From Escherichia coli (GTDB lineage Bacteria; Pseudomonadota; Gammaproteobacteria; Enterobacterales; Enterobacteriaceae), in NCBI RefSeq assembly GCF_013122565.1, contig NZ_CP053258.1: DNA of 64,000 nucleotides, one strand, 5' to 3'. The position numbers and the translations under genes are program-made. Shown here piece by piece: positions 1,296-8,823 of this stretch (positions within the stretch are counted from its first letter, which is position 1; the number at the start of each line of letters is the position of its first letter). The notes beneath the pieces are model-generated. The model worked only from the letters and a program-made list of their open reading frames with translations. It ran no database searches and was not told the DNA's origin.

Positions 1296-1324
1296 TTGAC
1301 AAAAAGAGAGTTACTGGCGAGTAT
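1296..1324 (+). promoter_or_regulatory. Candidate sigma70 promoter for + strand small RNA, copy 1 (TTGACA-17-GAGTAT)
   Basis: Perfect -35 TTGACA, 17-nt spacer, GAGTAT; same architecture in all three units although the spacer sequence differs in unit 3. Confidence 0.4.
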
Positions 1325-1330
1325 TGTCTC

Positions 1331-1428
1331 CGCTGAGACGCGCTTGCATTACTACGGTAATACAACCTGCTGGAAAGGCCGCGAACCAAACCGGCAACAA
1401 ATAGCCGCCTGATTTTGGCGGTTTTTTG
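1331..1428 (+). ncRNA. Candidate ~100-nt antisense-type sRNA, copy 1 (TimR/RyfB-like antitoxin RNA)
   Basis: Predicted start just after the promoter; 5' 17 nt cgctgagacgcgcttgc identical to 1171-1187 in the ryfA leader; ends at hairpin plus T-run at about 1405-1428. Confidence 0.4.
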
Positions 1429-1430
1429 TT
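1405..1430 (+). terminator. Intrinsic terminator of candidate sRNA copy 1
   Basis: ccgcctgattttggcgg hairpin followed by TTTTTTG. Confidence 0.55.
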
Positions 1431-1550
1431 GTTTAAAGAAAGTGAAATTACACGTTTAAGTAATATCTTTTATTGGTTAGTATTTTTAATATTAAGCGAA
1501 AATTGTTTATATTTGTCTGAATTCGGACTAATAAGTCAGGTTATTTTAAT

Positions 1551-1628
1551 ATCGAACATATTGCGCCATTCTATGAATGTCGCTGGGGTGGGCTTTTGCG
1601 TGACTTTAAACAGAATCGGATAATCTAA
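1551..1628 (+). pseudogene. Duplicated 3'-terminal fragment of sseB (last ~23 codons plus stop)
   Basis: Near-identical to 873-950, encodes ...HIAPFYECRWGGLLRDFKQNRII*; no start or upstream coding sequence. Confidence 0.6.
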
Positions 1629-1629
1629 A

Positions 1630-1930
1630 ATATGCCGCCCCAAAGGGCGGCATTCGGGCTTACTTGCTGCTCTGACGGTTGTTAACCACCAGTAAATTGT
1701 CGCCGGAGAGACTCCGGTTATTATTTACCTCGGTTAACAGCGCACCAGAAACAATAAGTACGATACAGAAGCACCGTATCTTCATTGTGCGGTCCATGCG
1801 AAGACCGCATCACGACAGCACCACTGGCGATATTGCCGCGATAGCAAGCGCTGTGAAACACCTGCATTTACGGCCACGGAACATCCTTTCCTAAAGCCAG
1901 CGCCCGTTTGCGAGACGGCGGAAAGGGCCG
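1630..1930 (-). ncRNA. ryfA: ryfA-like transcript copy 2
   Basis: Same architecture as copy 1; TATTAT on - strand at about 1937-1942, hairpin terminator at about 1627-1660. Confidence 0.45.
1660..1797 (-). CDS. Small hydrophobic protein, 45 aa, copy 2 (C-terminus ...VVNNRQSSK)
   Basis: Same frame and start as copy 1; differences confined to the last residues. Confidence 0.45.
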   Translation of the reverse strand: MDRTMKIRCFCIVLIVSGALLTEVNNNRSLSGDNLLVVNNRQSSK

Positions 1931-1973
1931 GTGTCGATAATACGCTAAATAAACAATAATTACTCTCTTTTGC

Positions 1974-2002
1974 TTGACAAAAAGAGAGTTGCTGGCGAAT
2001 AT
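1974..2002 (+). promoter_or_regulatory. Candidate promoter for + strand sRNA, copy 2 (TTGACA-17-GAATAT)
   Basis: Same spacing as copy 1. Confidence 0.4.
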
Positions 2003-2008
2003 TGCTCT

Positions 2009-2110
2009 GCTGTGAAGCACCTGCGTTGCTCATGCAACACAAGTCAATCTGCTGGAGAGGCCGCGAACCAAACCGGCAACAAATAACCGCCTGATCTTGG
2101 CGGTTTTTTG
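2009..2110 (+). ncRNA. Candidate antisense-type sRNA, copy 2
   Basis: 5' region gctgtgaagcacctgcgtt matches 1849-1868 with two A-to-G differences that would give G-U pairs; hairpin plus T-run terminator at about 2085-2110. Confidence 0.4.
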
Positions 2111-2230
2111 TTGCTTAAAGAAAGTGAATTTACATGTTTAAGTAATATCTTTTACCGGTTAGTATTTTTAATATTGAGCGGGATTTGTTTATATTTGTCT
2201 GAATTCGGACTAATAAGCCAGGTCATTTTA

Positions 2231-2310
2231 ATATCGAACATATTGCGCCATTCTATGAACGTCGCTGGGGTGGTTTTTTGCGTGACTTTAAACAGAATCG
2301 GATAATCTAA
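2231..2310 (+). pseudogene. Second duplicated 3'-terminal fragment of sseB
   Basis: Identical in sequence class to 873-950 and 1551-1628. Confidence 0.6.
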
Positions 2311-2311
2311 A

Positions 2312-2612
2312 ATATGCCGCCCCAAAGGGCGGCATTCGGGCTTACCTGCTGTTCTGAAGGTTGTTAACCACCAATAAATTGTTGCCGGAGAGACTCCGGT
2401 TATTATTTACCTCAGTTAACAGCGCACCAGAAACAATAAGTACGATACAGAAGCACCGTATCTTCATTGTGCGGTCCATGCGAAGACCGCATCACGACAG
2501 CACCACTGGCGATATTGCCGCGATAGCAAGCACTGTGGGGTGCCTGTATTTACGGTCATGGAACATCCTTTCCTAAAGCCAGTGCCCGTTTGCGAGACGG
2601 CGAAAAGGGCCG
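2312..2612 (-). ncRNA. ryfA: ryfA-like transcript copy 3
   Basis: TATTAT on - strand at about 2619-2624; hairpin terminator at about 2309-2340. Confidence 0.45.
2342..2479 (-). CDS. Small hydrophobic protein, 45 aa, copy 3 (D33N plus two synonymous changes relative to copy 1)
   Basis: ACC to ACT and CTG to TTG silent substitutions preserve the reading frame. Confidence 0.45.
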   Translation of the reverse strand: MDRTMKIRCFCIVLIVSGALLTEVNNNRSLSGNNLLVVNNLQNSR

Positions 2613-2658
2613 TTAAGAATAATACTCTCATGTTTGAATAATTACTCTGTTTATTATC

Positions 2659-2687
2659 TTGACATGGCCAGGCATAAAAGAGAGTAT
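2659..2687 (+). promoter_or_regulatory. Candidate promoter for + strand sRNA, copy 3 (TTGACA-17-GAGTAT)
   Basis: Hexamers and 17-nt spacing kept although spacer and upstream palindrome have diverged. Confidence 0.4.
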
Positions 2688-2692
2688 TTCAA

Positions 2693-2795
2693 CACTGTGG
2701 GGTGCCTGCGTTGCTCCGGCAACACAAGCCAACCTGCTGGAAAGGCCGCGAACCAGACCAGCAATAAAAAACCGCCAAATTCGGCGGTTTTTTAT
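2693..2795 (+). ncRNA. Candidate antisense-type sRNA, copy 3
   Basis: 5' cactgtggggtgcctg identical to 2531-2546 in the ryfA-3 leader; ends at terminator 2768-2797. Confidence 0.4.
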
Positions 2796-2800
2796 TGCCT
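2766..2800. terminator. Bidirectional intrinsic terminator between sRNA copy 3 (+) and sseA (-)
   Basis: caataaaaaaccgccaaattcggcggttttttattg: GC stem flanked by A-run and T-run. Confidence 0.6.
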
Positions 2801-2809
2801 GTAAAAAGC

Positions 2810-3655
2810 TTATTTCACTGGCTCAACCGGTAAATCTGCCCGCGCGCCCCATTCACTCCATGCGCCGTCGTACAGTTTCACGTTTGGCACATCCAGCGTC
2901 GCGAGTGCCAACAAAACCACGGCTGCTGTTACACCAGAGCCGCAGCTGACGATAATCGGTTTGTCATAGCTGACGCCGCGACCAAAAAATATCGCATCCA
3001 GTTCATCGGTCGTTTTTAGTTCGCCTTCGCGCACCAGTTCCGTCCACGGAACGTTCAATGCACCGGGAATATGTCCGCGACGTAAACCTGGGCGAGGTTC
3101 ATCAACTTCTGCGTTAAAACGTGCAGCCGGGCGGGCATCAACAATTTGCGCCGTATTTTCATGGCTTGCCAATAATACATCGGTTACTTTCACCACGGCT
3201 TCAGGATTAAACGCGGCGTTAAACTCTCCTTCCGGCAGCTCTACTGCACCTTCTTCTAACAACAGATCATCGCGCTGCCAGCCTGCAAGTCCACCCCCCA
3301 GAATCGACACTTTCTCTACACCAAAGGTGCGCAGCATCCACCATGCTCGTGGGGCTGAGAAAAGATTACCTTCGTCATAGACAATCAGGTGCTTATCCTG
3401 GTTAACGCCTAATTCACGCATTGCCACGGCGAACGTTTCCGGGCGCGGCAGCATGTGCGGAAGCGGGGAAGTGTGATCAGAAAGCGCTTCGATATCAAAA
3501 AACACTGCGCCGGGAATATGTCCATTCAGATACTCCTGAGCAACGTTACGATCTTCCTGTCCAGGCGACGCCATGCGGGCATCGATAATCTGAATTTCCG
3601 GGTCATCAATATGTTCGGCGAGCCAGTCGGCTCCTACAAACCATGTCGTGGACAT
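2810..3655 (-). CDS. sseA: 3-mercaptopyruvate sulfurtransferase (rhodanese family)
   Basis: 281 aa from ATG at 3655 (MSTTWFVGADWLAEH...); track ORF extends further upstream; active-site CGSGVTA. Confidence 0.93.
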   Translation of the reverse strand: MSTTWFVGADWLAEHIDDPEIQIIDARMASPGQEDRNVAQEYLNGHIPGAVFFDIEALSDHTSPLPHMLPRPETFAVAMRELGVNQDKHLIVYDEGNLFSAPRAWWMLRTFGVEKVSILGGGLAGWQRDDLLLEEGAVELPEGEFNAAFNPEAVVKVTDVLLASHENTAQIVDARPAARFNAEVDEPRPGLRRGHIPGALNVPWTELVREGELKTTDELDAIFFGRGVSYDKPIIVSCGSGVTAAVVLLALATLDVPNVKLYDGAWSEWGARADLPVEPVK

Positions 3656-3861
3656 AGGCATCTCCATTTTTGCCGGGGTTAGGCTAAATTGTCGGATGTT
3701 TAGTGAAAAGCGACAAGCAAAAGAGGCTGATTTGGCTGTCTGAGCCACAATTCTCACTAAAATTCGGATTGTATGGGCGTGATACTGAATTACATAACGT
3801 AAATTCTCACGCATAATAATTATTCGACGTTGCTAACGGGCCATTGTGGCAGGGATGAAAA

Positions 3862-6800: not shown

Positions 6801-8823
6801 GGGCGAAGGCTCGGTTACACTGCCAATTGGCGATTTTAACGGTGAATTACGCGTCATGGCGCAAGCCTGGACGGCAGATGACTTCGGTAGCAACGAAAGC
6901 AAAGTGATAGTTGCCGCACCGGTGATTGCTGAACTGAACATGCCGCGCTTTATGGCGAGTGGCGATACCTCGCGTCTGACGCTGGATATCACTAATCTTA
7001 CCGATAAACCGCAAAAACTGAACGTTGCCCTGACCGCCAGTGGTTTGCTTGAACTGGTCAGCGATTCACCCGCAGCCGTTGAATTAGCGCCAGGTGTGCG
7101 TACTACGCTGTTTATCCCGGTGCGAGCATTGCCGGGTTATGGCGATGGAGAAATTCAGGCCACCATTAGCGGGTTAGCGTTACCGGGTGAAACCGTTGCC
7201 GATCAGCATAAGCAGTGGAAAATCGGCGTCCGTCCGGCGTTCCCGGCACAAACGGTTAATGACGGTACGGCGTTGCAGCCTGGTGAGTCATGGGCGATTC
7301 CGGCGGATGGATTGCAAAACTTCTCGCCTGTTACGCTGGAAGGGCAATTGTTGTTGAGCGGCAAACCACCGCTGAACATCGCACGTTATATCAAAGAGTT
7401 AAAAGCGTATCCGTACGGCTGTCTCGAGCAAACCGCCAGCGGCCTGTTCCCGTCACTTTATACCAACGCAGCCCAACTGCAGGCGTTGGGCATCAAAGGC
7501 GACAGTGATGAGAAACGCCGTGCATCGGTCGATATCGGCATTTCCCGTTTGCTGCAAATGCAACGTGATAACGGCGGCTTTGCGCTGTGGGATAAAAACG
7601 GTGACGAAGAGTACTGGCTGACGGCTTACGTGATGGATTTCCTGGTCCGCGCAGGCGAACAGGGTTACAGCGTGCCGACAGACGCCATTAACCGGGGTAA
7701 TGAGCGTCTGCTGCGCTATTTACAAGATCCGGGCATGATGTCGATCCCGTACGCGGATAATCTCAAAGCCAGTAAATTCGCCGTACAGTCTTACGCTGCG
7801 CTGGTGTTGGCCCGTCAGCAAAAGGCTCCACTGGGTGCGCTGCGTGAAATCTGGGAGCATCGTGCAGATGCCGCTTCTGGTTTACCGCTGCTGCAACTTG
7901 GCGTTGCGCTGAAAACCATGGGTGATGCAACGCGTGGTGAAGAAGCGATTGTGCTGGCGCTGAAAACGCAGAGAAATAGTGATGAGCGGATATGGCTGGG
8001 TGATTACGGTAGTCCACTGCGCGACAACGCGTTAATGCTCTCCTTGCTGGAAGAAAATAAACTGCTACCCGATGAGCAGTACACTTTGCTGAACACACTT
8101 TCGCAGCAGGCGTTTGGTGAACGCTGGCTATCGACGCAGGAAAGTAACGCGTTGTTCCTGGCTGCCCGTACGATTCAGGATTTACCGGGTAAATGGCAGG
8201 CGCAAACCTCTTTCTCATCTGAGCCGCTGATAGGCGAGAAAGCGCAAAACAGCACTCTGAATAGCGATCAACTTGCCACCTTGCAGGTGACCAACAGTGG
8301 CGATCAGCCGTTATGGCTGCGTGTGGATGCCAGCGGTTATCCGCAATCCGCACCTTTACCGGCGAACAATGTGCTGCAAATCGAGCGTCATATTCTTGGT
8401 ACTGATGGTAAGAGCAAATCGCTGGACTCGTTACGTAGCGGCGATCTGGTGCTGGTCTGGTTGCAGGTAAAAGCCAGTAACAGCGTGCCAGATGCGTTAG
8501 TCGTGGATTTGCTGCCTGCGGGTCTGGAACTGGAAAACCAGAATCTGGCGAACGGTAGCGCCAGCCTGGAGCAAAGTGGTGGCGAAGTGCAAAACTTACT
8601 GAACCAGATGCAGCAGGCGAGTATTAAGCACATTGAGTTCCGTGACGATCGCTTTGTGGCGGCGGTTGCCGTTGATGAATACCAACCGGTAACGCTGGTG
8701 TATCTGGCGCGGGCGGTGACGCCGGGAACGTATCAGGTACCGCAACCGATGGTGGAATCAATGTATGTTCCCCAATGGCGGGCGACTGGCGCGGCTGAAG
8801 ATCTGCTGATTGTCAGACCGTAA
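3862..8823 (+). CDS. yfhM: Alpha-2-macroglobulin-family lipoprotein
   Basis: 1653 aa; lipoprotein signal LALAGC; thioester motif CLEQ (YGCLEQTAS); adjacent to pbpC. Confidence 0.95.
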   Translation: MKKLRLAACMLMLALAGCDNNDNAPTAVKKDAPSEVTKAASSENASSAKLSAPERQKLAQQSAGKALTLLDLAEVQLDGAATLVLTFSIPLDPDQDFSRVIHVVDKKSGKVDGAWELSDNLKELRLRHLEPKRDLIVTIGKEVKALNNATFSKDYEKTITTRDIQPSVGFASRGSLLPGKVVEGLPVMALNVNNVDVNFFRVKPESLPAFISQWEYRNSLANWQSDKLLQMADLVYTGRFDLNPARNTREKLLLPLGDIKPLQQAGVYLAVMNQAGRYDYSNPATLFTLSDIGVSAHRYHNRLDIFTQSLENGAAQQGIEVSLLNEKGQTLTQATSDAQGHVQLENDKNAALLLARKDGQTTLLDLKLPALDLAEFNIAGAPGYSKQFFMFGPRDLYRPGETVILNGLLRDADGKALPDQPIKLDVIKPDGQVLRSVVSQPENGLYHLTWPLDSNAATGMWHIRANTGDNQYRMWDFHVEDFMPERMALNLTGEKTPLMPKDEVKFSVVGYYLYGAPANGNTLQGQLFLRPLRDAVSALPGFEFGDIAAENLSRTLDEVQLTLDDKGRGEVSTESQWKETHSPLQVIFQGSLLESGGRPVTRRAEQAIWPADALPGIRPQFASKSVYDYRTDSTVKQLIVDEGSNAAFDIVYSDAQGVKKAVSGLQVRLIRERRDYYWNWSEDEGWQSQFDQKDLIENEQTLDLQADETGKVSFPVEWGAYRLEVKAPNEAVSSVRFWAGYSWQDNSDGSGTVRPDRVTLKLDKASYRPGDTIKLHIAAPTAGKGYAMVESSEGPLWWQEIDVPAQGLDLTIPVDKTWHRHDLYLSTLVVRPGDKSRSATPKRAVGVLHLPLGDENRRLDLALETPAKMRPNQPLTVKIKASNKNGEMPKQVNVLVSAVDSGVLNITDYVTPDPWQAFFGQKRYGADIYDIYGQVIEGQGRLAALRFGGDGDELKRGGKPPVNHVNIVAQQALPVTLNEQGEGSVTLPIGDFNGELRVMAQAWTADDFGSNESKVIVAAPVIAELNMPRFMASGDTSRLTLDITNLTDKPQKLNVALTASGLLELVSDSPAAVELAPGVRTTLFIPVRALPGYGDGEIQATISGLALPGETVADQHKQWKIGVRPAFPAQTVNDGTALQPGESWAIPADGLQNFSPVTLEGQLLLSGKPPLNIARYIKELKAYPYGCLEQTASGLFPSLYTNAAQLQALGIKGDSDEKRRASVDIGISRLLQMQRDNGGFALWDKNGDEEYWLTAYVMDFLVRAGEQGYSVPTDAINRGNERLLRYLQDPGMMSIPYADNLKASKFAVQSYAALVLARQQKAPLGALREIWEHRADAASGLPLLQLGVALKTMGDATRGEEAIVLALKTQRNSDERIWLGDYGSPLRDNALMLSLLEENKLLPDEQYTLLNTLSQQAFGERWLSTQESNALFLAARTIQDLPGKWQAQTSFSSEPLIGEKAQNSTLNSDQLATLQVTNSGDQPLWLRVDASGYPQSAPLPANNVLQIERHILGTDGKSKSLDSLRSGDLVLVWLQVKASNSVPDALVVDLLPAGLELENQNLANGSASLEQSGGEVQNLLNQMQQASIKHIEFRDDRFVAAVAVDEYQPVTLVYLARAVTPGTYQVPQPMVESMYVPQWRATGAAEDLLIVRP

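Follow-up and report, generated by a model that had tools for sequence, protein, structure and literature searches.

Three tandem timPR modules with differently targeted putative TimR (RyfB) antitoxin RNAs at the sseB–sseA locus of an Escherichia coli genome

The first 4.2 kb of a 64,000-nt stretch of Escherichia coli DNA (contig NZ_CP053258.1 of assembly GCF_013122565.1; hereafter the window, numbered from its first letter) are an E. coli-type sseB–sseA intergenic locus with three tandem timPR modules. Each module has a predicted + strand RNA of about 100 nt, and the three RNAs, judged by their sequence, are copies of TimR (RyfB), the antitoxin small RNA (sRNA) of the timP/ryfA type I toxin-antitoxin module. 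The whole is best explained as three timPR modules in which a sigma-70-driven TimR of ~100 nt silences the adjoining timP through pairing of its seed with the SL2 hairpin of the timP mRNA, a reading to which we assign a probability of roughly 0.93. As a discovery this matters little, because TimR/RyfB and its mechanism are published and the K-12 gene is annotated; the sole unusual feature is the presence of three differently targeted copies in one tandem array.

The original prediction, drawn from the letters of the window, was that each unit contains a divergent promoter and an intrinsic terminator bounding a + strand RNA of ~100 nt. This reading stands, its coordinates are all correct, and the RNA so bounded aligns end to end with known TimR. 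The predicted elements are as follows:

1296-1324, + strand: timR-1 promoter; TTGACA, 17 nt, GAGTAT
1331-1429, + strand: TimR-1 sRNA, ~99 nt; seed 1331-1347, stem-loop 1, stem-loop 2, terminator
1403-1429, + strand: TimR-1 intrinsic terminator, hairpin 1403-1423 plus TTTTGT; bidirectional
1974-2002, + strand: timR-2 promoter; TTGACA, 17 nt, GAATAT
2009-2111, + strand: TimR-2 sRNA, ~103 nt; seed 2009-2024
2085-2111, + strand: TimR-2 intrinsic terminator, hairpin 2085-2105 plus TTTTGT
2659-2687, + strand: timR-3 promoter; TTGACA, 17 nt, GAGTAT; Salmonella/Citrobacter-like spacer ending AAAAGAGAGTAT
2694-2795, + strand: TimR-3 sRNA, ~102 nt; seed about 2693-2708
about 2764-2795, both strands: TimR-3 terminator, a 13-pair hairpin (RNAfold), palindromic with A- and T-runs

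From first base through T-run, the window RNAs align with both Salmonella TimR and K-12 timR; RNAs 1, 2 and 3 are 75, 88 and 90% identical to the K-12 RNA and 70, 69 and 79% identical to that of Salmonella, respectively. TimR-1 has the same seed as the ryfA-proximal copy in K-12 and is 95% identical to it overall. A scan of our genome collection with a conserved ryfA pattern returned six loci only, none from Salmonella; the pattern was too strict, and Salmonella TimR was therefore taken from published oligonucleotides, the RNA (which begins CTACGGTGTGCC) and its upstream region being rebuilt from those of Andresen et al. 2020 (Table S2). The RNA has been called STnc2070 in Salmonella, RyfB1 and RyfB2 in Shigella, and timR (b4811) in E. 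coli K-12. Searches of the + strand RNAs against Rfam 15 gave no family at threshold (the best were sraL, 32.4 versus 39 bits; AgrB, 28; and ohsC, 26), which suggests that TimR is without an Rfam model, and the E. coli RefSeq records have no feature annotated under the type-1 and type-3 promoter/seed regions that were searched. The three window timR genes would thus go unannotated by standard pipelines, and the missing RefSeq annotation is probably why the RNA looked new.

RNA lengths were counted from 7 nt after the −10 hexamer to the positions homologous to the 3′ ends mapped in K-12 by Term-seq. The + strand starts proposed earlier (1331, 2009 and 2694) lie within 0-2 nt of the K-12 timR and Salmonella TimR reference starts: K-12 timR is annotated from the G of GCTGTGAAGCACC, a base homologous to window position 2009 and 7 nt after the −10, and the +1 of the Salmonella TimR construct is homologous to 1333/2010/2695. 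A GC hairpin with a T-run is found ~100 nt past the promoter in all three units, as had been claimed, and in K-12 Term-seq places 3′ ends at 2653354(−) and 2653679(−), 8 nt past the homologous hairpins (Adams et al. 2021, supplementary file 1, PMC7815308). The distal K-12 terminator, which has such a 3′ end, is nearly identical to the TimR-3 terminator. A consensus terminator scan missed the unit 3 hairpin, apparently since the A/T runs on either side lengthen its stem and absorb the T-run; the hairpin is also positioned to end transcription of the convergent sseA. The RNAs share a predicted fold, in which a 5′ seed left single-stranded is followed by stem-loop 1 (5 bp), stem-loop 2 and the terminator, and the consensus structure includes compensatory changes (two GC-to-AU in stem-loop 1 and one in the terminator). 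Fold z-scores are −2.5 to −3.8, and the region of stem-loop 2 (CUGGAAAGGCCGCGAA) hardly varies between genera. We rejected a coding role for the + strand RNA: the only open reading frames (ORFs) begin ahead of its predicted start, and none recurs from unit to unit.

The −35 and −10 hexamers with their exact 17-nt spacing are present in all three units where the original prediction had placed them. The motif TTGACA-N17-GARTAT has three matches in the window, all at the timR sites, with 0.00 expected (100 dinucleotide-preserving shuffles). The units arose by tandem duplication, so the three matches cannot be counted as independent; independent support for conservation of the promoter is given by unit 3 and by other species, in which the spacer has another sequence. 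All 13 intact TimR-like genes compared (from the window, K-12, E. coli MEW, a second E. coli lineage [L003], E. whittamii, Escherichia sp. E1V33 and two Citrobacter) carry TTGAC[A/T]-17-GAnTAT, with the seed beginning 7-8 nt later. Among them at least four unrelated spacer classes can be told apart, and Salmonella, whose TimR promoter is TTGACA-17-GAGTAT (oligonucleotide EHO-1349), brings the number to five. Salmonella, Citrobacter and several Escherichia thus keep the hexamers and the 17 nt in spite of unrelated spacers, which supports the earlier suggestion of selection on promoter geometry.

That suggestion had been built on unit 3, whose spacer and upstream palindrome were described as having diverged while hexamers and spacing were kept. 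The kept geometry is as described, but it is units 1 and 2, with the palindrome, that seem to be derived. The spacer of unit 3 ends in AAAAGAGAGTAT, that of Salmonella in AAAAGGGAGTAT and that of one Citrobacter in AAAAGGGACTAT, giving an outgroup-like pattern AAAAGrGAsTAT, whereas units 1 and 2 have AAAAGAGAGT right after the −35 and then 11 extra nt before the final AT. Because unit 3 resembles the outgroups it looks ancestral, and the promoters of units 1 and 2 look derived, probably through two offsetting 11-nt changes that preserved the spacing. The palindrome itself, AACTCTCTTTT-N8-AAAAGAGAGTT, has 11-bp arms and its midpoint at the timR −35; in units 1 and 2 it lies at 1283-1312 and 1961-1990, and it also occurs in K-12, MEW and E. 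whittamii, and is absent from unit 3, Salmonella and Citrobacter. As it is situated between the two divergent start sites it would be untranscribed, and it could be an operator or a by-product of rearrangement. We rejected the idea that CTGGCGAGTATTGT in units 1 and 2 is a sigma-54-like element, as unit 3, Salmonella and Citrobacter are without the motif.

In every unit the + strand RNA begins 78-81 nt upstream of the 5′ end of ryfA and diverges from it. The partner genes and their candidate −10 hexamers are:

949-1253, − strand: ryfA-1, the timP-1 mRNA; Rfam RF00126, 314 bits versus a threshold of 80; variable region CGCGT
982-1107, − strand: timP-1 ORF, 41 aa
1259-1264, − strand: candidate −10 TATTAT of ryfA-1/timP-1; hexamer and distance as before the Salmonella timP +1
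1627-1931, − strand: ryfA-2, the timP-2 mRNA; Rfam RF00126, 316 bits versus 80; variable region TGTTT
1660-1785, − strand: timP-2 ORF, 41 aa
1937-1942, − strand: candidate −10 TATTAT of ryfA-2
2309-2613, − strand: ryfA-3, the timP-3 mRNA; Rfam RF00126, 324 bits versus 80; variable region CACCC
2342-2467, − strand: timP-3 ORF, 41 aa
2619-2624, − strand: candidate −10 TATTAT of ryfA-3

All three TimP ORFs are intact and score 84 bits with NCBIfam NF040796 (cut-off 45). The − strand TATTAT, proposed earlier as the ryfA −10, is present at each site and correctly placed for ryfA/timP, 6-8 nt upstream of the Rfam-given ryfA 5′ ends (1253, 1931 and 2613). In Salmonella, TATTAT is followed after 7 nt by the timP +1 GGCCCUUUCC (oligonucleotides EHO-1348 and EHO-1224), which equates to window positions 1251, 1929 and 2611; ryfA in K-12 and in Rfam starts 2 nt upstream of these, so that the − strand starts first proposed (1252, 1930 and 2612) fall within 1-2 nt of both the K-12 ryfA and the Salmonella timP 5′ ends. 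No database record was found with the exact TimP-2 protein sequence, and TimP protein searches reached only Escherichia, Shigella and a few mislabelled records. We note that many TimP entries from public draft assemblies are labelled partial and sit where a contig stops, which suggests that short-read assembly breaks or collapses multi-copy arrays; copy numbers are therefore reliable only from complete genomes.

The feature that explains the function of the RNA, which the original prediction did not mention, is complementarity between the TimR seed and the ryfA mRNA of the same unit. The first 16-19 nt of each TimR are complementary to positions 67/68-83 of the ryfA beside it, a target that corresponds to the SL2 hairpin (Rfam model positions 68-87) and contains the 'variable region' of Fris et al.:

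1171-1187, − strand: TimR-1 target in SL2 of ryfA-1; 17 nt, perfect Watson-Crick
1850-1865, − strand: TimR-2 target in SL2 of ryfA-2; 16 pairs, one G-U
2531-2546, − strand: TimR-3 target in SL2 of ryfA-3; 16 nt, perfect Watson-Crick

Duplex energies were computed with RNAduplex for the first 40 nt of each + strand RNA against ryfA positions 50-100, full-length runs having been discarded for their meaningless long interactions. Cognate duplexes in units 1, 2 and 3 have energies of −40.2, −43.4 and −41.6 kcal/mol, compared with −20.9 to −34.6 kcal/mol for non-cognate combinations and an average of about −19 for shuffled seeds. The seeds are 59-71% identical to one another, each matches the target in its own unit, and the seed tracks its own target in Citrobacter and Salmonella too. 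Seed and target thus differ between units and change together, and the array would therefore consist of three largely separate, separately targeted antitoxin/toxin pairs. A second contact, between GGAAAGG of TimR and CCUUUCC in the 5′ arm of ryfA, was considered and dropped because Citrobacter sequences (L008) are without clean co-variation.

We propose that a sigma-70 promoter, its −35 perfect (TTGACA), its −10 weak (GAnTAT) and the two 17 nt apart, would drive a non-coding TimR of ~100 nt on the + strand, that transcription would halt at the intrinsic terminator, and that the RNA would run divergently from ryfA, the mRNA of the 41-aa membrane toxin TimP. By analogy with the Salmonella system, TimR pairing would open SL2 of the timP mRNA, and the opening would prevent or destabilise the SL1–SL3 pseudoknot required for translation initiation, so that no TimP would be made while TimR is present. 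The mechanism has been shown experimentally in Salmonella (PMC7667032, PMC11228461, PMC13000454), where TimR was detected by Northern blot and the pairing proven by compensatory mutations and in vitro translation (PMC7667032), and where TimR bound to SL2 destabilises the SL1–SL3 pseudoknot (PMC11228461, PMC13000454). We infer that the window promoters fire and that the window RNAs repress translation by the same mechanism.

The remaining features of the locus are:

165-950, + strand: sseB, the first gene of the locus, followed by the three tandem units
1385-1595, − strand: IS128 RNA match (Rfam RF00125), 203 bits
1430-1626: inter-unit spacer 1, an AT-rich stretch plus the duplicated 84-nt sseB 3′ tail (1545-1628)
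2067-2277, − strand: IS128 RNA match (Rfam RF00125), 225 bits
2112-2308: inter-unit spacer 2, built as spacer 1
2810-3657, − strand: sseA, convergent to unit 3, with its stop codon at 2810
3862 onward: yfhM, beyond sseA

The tandem unit is ~680 nt long, with direct-repeat families beginning at 867, 1545 and 2227, and each unit repeats the final 84 nt of sseB and holds a complete ryfA gene on the − strand together with the + strand element; units 1 and 2, which are ~94-98% identical over long stretches, have an AT-rich spacer as well. The sseB 3′ tail copies at 1545-1628 and 2227-2310 are annotated as partial sseB pseudogenes in strain MEW; since such tails begin the units, the duplication unit spans from inside sseB to the spacer. 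The IS128 matches cover the inter-unit spacers, the duplicated sseB tail and, on the opposite strand, the TimR terminators. The + strand RNAs do not themselves belong to IS128, having only a 24-25-bit terminator match to it on the + strand, and IS128 as a real RNA in the − orientation is doubtful because the 3′ end mapped there in K-12 is on the TimR strand. Upstream of sseB, an inverted repeat at 26-122 resembles repetitive extragenic palindromic elements and gives sub-threshold Rfam matches to naRNA4 (40.3 versus 59.5 bits) and ES036 (28.9 versus 37.6). Separately, a segment of sseB near its coding 5′ end (202-232) resembles the TimR stem-loop 2 region in the same sense (27/32 positions, two gaps), its counterparts being 1365-1395, 2047-2077 and 2732-2762. 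For unit 1 the local score is 18 versus a maximum of 14 in 300 shuffles, and the likeness could be chance or a trace of common origin.

Arrays of this kind are rare. Of 5,426 complete E. coli genomes all but one (5,425) have ryfA; the copies add up to 5,601 and no genome has more than three, so that multi-copy arrays are uncommon, and a comparable three-unit array is found in only one of the 5,426. This is strain MEW, which alone matches the whole array in one piece (95.9% identity; order type 1, type 2, type 3). The type-3 region occurs in 579 complete E. coli genomes, and other architectures include single units of each type and an arrangement in which a type-1 ryfA and the TimR cognate to it are accompanied by a ryfA remnant and an orphan TimR of type 2. 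The K-12 locus, in the homologous place, is annotated with timR (b4811, 100 nt), ryfA (b4440) and timP (b4812). It resembles the window in its location and in homologous 5′ and 3′ ends (TimR-2 and TimR-3 are the closest to b4811, as given above), but it has a single ryfA (TGTTT type) with two TimR-like genes. Of these the annotated timR, which is the cognate one, is 400 nt away from ryfA on the far side of a ryfA 5′ remnant, and the gene adjoining ryfA is of type 1 and non-cognate. This second gene, unannotated, lies at 2653678-2653777 (−) of NC_000913.3 (L001, 1679-1778) and has the seed CGCTGAGACGCGCTTGC; its Term-seq 3′ end, 2653679(−), outscores the one mapped for annotated timR and carries no label but 'antisense to IS128'. 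A different layout is seen in Citrobacter amalonaticus AUH_CA_2023_1 (L005, about 8026-8130), where the SL2 target of ryfA is fused directly to the TimR body. This locus is without the first ~66 nt of ryfA and both divergent promoters, and its layout is what would be expected of a remnant of deletion between the ~17-nt direct repeat formed by seed and target.

Several observations weigh against three promoter-driven RNAs that each silence only the adjoining timP. The timR −10 matches 3/6 consensus positions, keeping the A at position 2 and the T at position 6, and two E. coli loci with a single type-2 unit (L010, 4623-4652; L016) have a 1-nt insertion giving TTGACA-18-GAATAT, so that 17-nt spacing is preferred rather than fixed. 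The Cappable-seq and SMRT-Cappable-seq supplements have no entries near the K-12 timR coordinates and so give no direct E. coli start-site evidence; the window 5′ ends are accordingly placed by the K-12 annotation, the Salmonella +1 and the position of the promoter, and should be regarded as predicted. E. coli ryfA phenotypes independent of the TimP ORF have been reported (PMC8205139), and the module may therefore do more than control a toxin. Pairing is also not wholly specific. The type-3 seed (2693-2712) can form an uninterrupted 18-pair helix with the type-2 target (1849-1868; 13 Watson-Crick plus 6 G-U), at −34.0 kcal/mol versus −43.4 for the cognate pair (RNAduplex), and the type-1 seed pairs with the type-2 target at 18/20 positions (longest helix, 11). 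The reverse combination, type-2 seed with type-3 target, has only 7 pairs in a row, and one-way cross-talk from unit 3 to unit 2 is thus possible.

A tentative extension, to which we give well below even odds, is that the toxin-antitoxin pairs of the array are only partly insulated, the type-3 seed (and, less so, the type-1 seed) wobble-pairing with the U-rich TGTTT target to provide one-way cross-protection. If true, this would explain why K-12-like strains keep an expressed 'non-cognate' TimR beside a type-2 ryfA. It would add that the array evolves by unequal crossing-over and by deletion between the 17-nt seed/target direct repeat, and that the promoter has been rebuilt by two offsetting 11-nt indels with the 17-nt spacing kept.

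Returning to the reading of three TimR antitoxins, we weighed three other accounts of the + strand RNAs. The least improbable, though still unlikely, is that they mainly regulate other genes in trans, with timP a secondary target. Loss of ryfA from avian pathogenic E. coli gives strong phenotypes only with timR present, and the authors suggest aberrant regulation by the unpartnered TimR (PMC13188913); expressed orphan TimR copies persist in K-12 and in other strains, and stem-loop 2 (CUGGAAAGGCCGCGAA) is more conserved across genera than a plain hairpin needs. However, no trans target is known, TimR overexpression altered none of the phenotypes tested (PMC13188913), and the seed is the only co-varying part, its partner being the adjoining timP 5′ untranslated region; a role in trans would in any case add to the antitoxin role without replacing it. 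We consider it somewhat less likely again that only some of the three copies are functional, the rest being decaying duplicates whose promoters and terminators are retained through recent duplication. The near-identity of units 1 and 2 means that similarity alone shows no selection, orphan TimR copies and ryfA remnants occur in K-12 and at two further loci (L009 and L012), and the Citrobacter locus described above has lost both promoters. Decay is nevertheless hard to reconcile with three intact timP ORFs and three full-model ryfA genes, with seeds that each fit their own target in spite of their low mutual identity, with retention in MEW of all three types in the same order, and with the strong Term-seq 3′ ends yielded by both K-12 homologues, including the orphan.

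The hairpins might instead belong to − strand transcripts (IS128, or sseA at unit 3), the + strand 'RNA' being an accident of a bidirectional terminator near a promoter-like site. The − strand IS128 matches do include the hairpins, A- and T-runs flank these on both sides, and in unit 3 the sseA stop codon is followed 15 nt downstream by the hairpin. We regard this account as highly improbable, as the K-12 Term-seq 3′ ends sit on the TimR strand (even that named for IS128 is antisense to it), the + segment is conserved over its full length between Escherichia and Salmonella, its seed changing in step with the target, and Salmonella TimR has been both seen on a blot and shown to act (PMC7667032); use of the hairpin in both directions is moreover compatible with TimR.

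The analysis goes slightly beyond the published work consulted in describing the three-target array, the polarity in which unit 3 appears ancestral, the possible one-way wobble cross-talk and the expressed K-12 orphan. The array brings together three of the four known seed/target versions and offers a ready-made natural panel on which to test how far sibling type I antitoxins tell toxin mRNAs apart. It also helps in reading the phenotypes of ryfA/timR deletions in pathogenic E. coli, where copy number and orphan copies vary by strain.

The closest known system is TimR of Salmonella Typhimurium (Andresen et al. 2020; Rizvanovic et al. 2024; NAR 2026), which is likewise divergent from timP/ryfA, with the same hexamers and 17-nt spacing, a 5′ seed against SL2 in timP's untranslated 5′ region, and the same stem-loop 1/stem-loop 2/terminator layout at 69-79% identity. 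It differs in being a single copy with another spacer and the seed CTACGGTGTGCCTGCG, whereas the window has three copies with three other seeds. In Shigella dysenteriae, tandem 'sibling' units also lie between sseB and sseA, with two units versus three in the window (Fris et al. 2017, PMC5333039); RNA-seq there revealed a ~100-nt transcript divergent to each of the two ryfA copies, named RyfB1 and RyfB2, whose complementarity spans the 5-nt ryfA variable region, and RyfB1 lowered RyfA1 and not RyfA2 (PMC5333039).

More distant likenesses are found in other divergent type I pairs (tisB/istR-1, shoB/ohsC, zorO/orzO and dinQ/agrB) and in the ibs/sib family, which also combine a small hydrophobic toxin with a short sRNA. 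In zor/orz (zorO/orzO in tandem with zorP/orzP) and ibs/sib, paralogous copies discriminate their own partners. These pairs have no sequence relationship to timPR, the Rfam models of ohsC, AgrB and OrzO-P giving 15-28 bits, below their thresholds. In the analogues listed in PMC7667032, an sRNA from an adjoining divergent promoter pairs with the toxin 5′ untranslated region far from the ribosome-binding site. The timP mRNA differs from those of the other type I toxins in that, according to the Salmonella work, it is activated by refolding into the pseudoknot and not by RNase processing.

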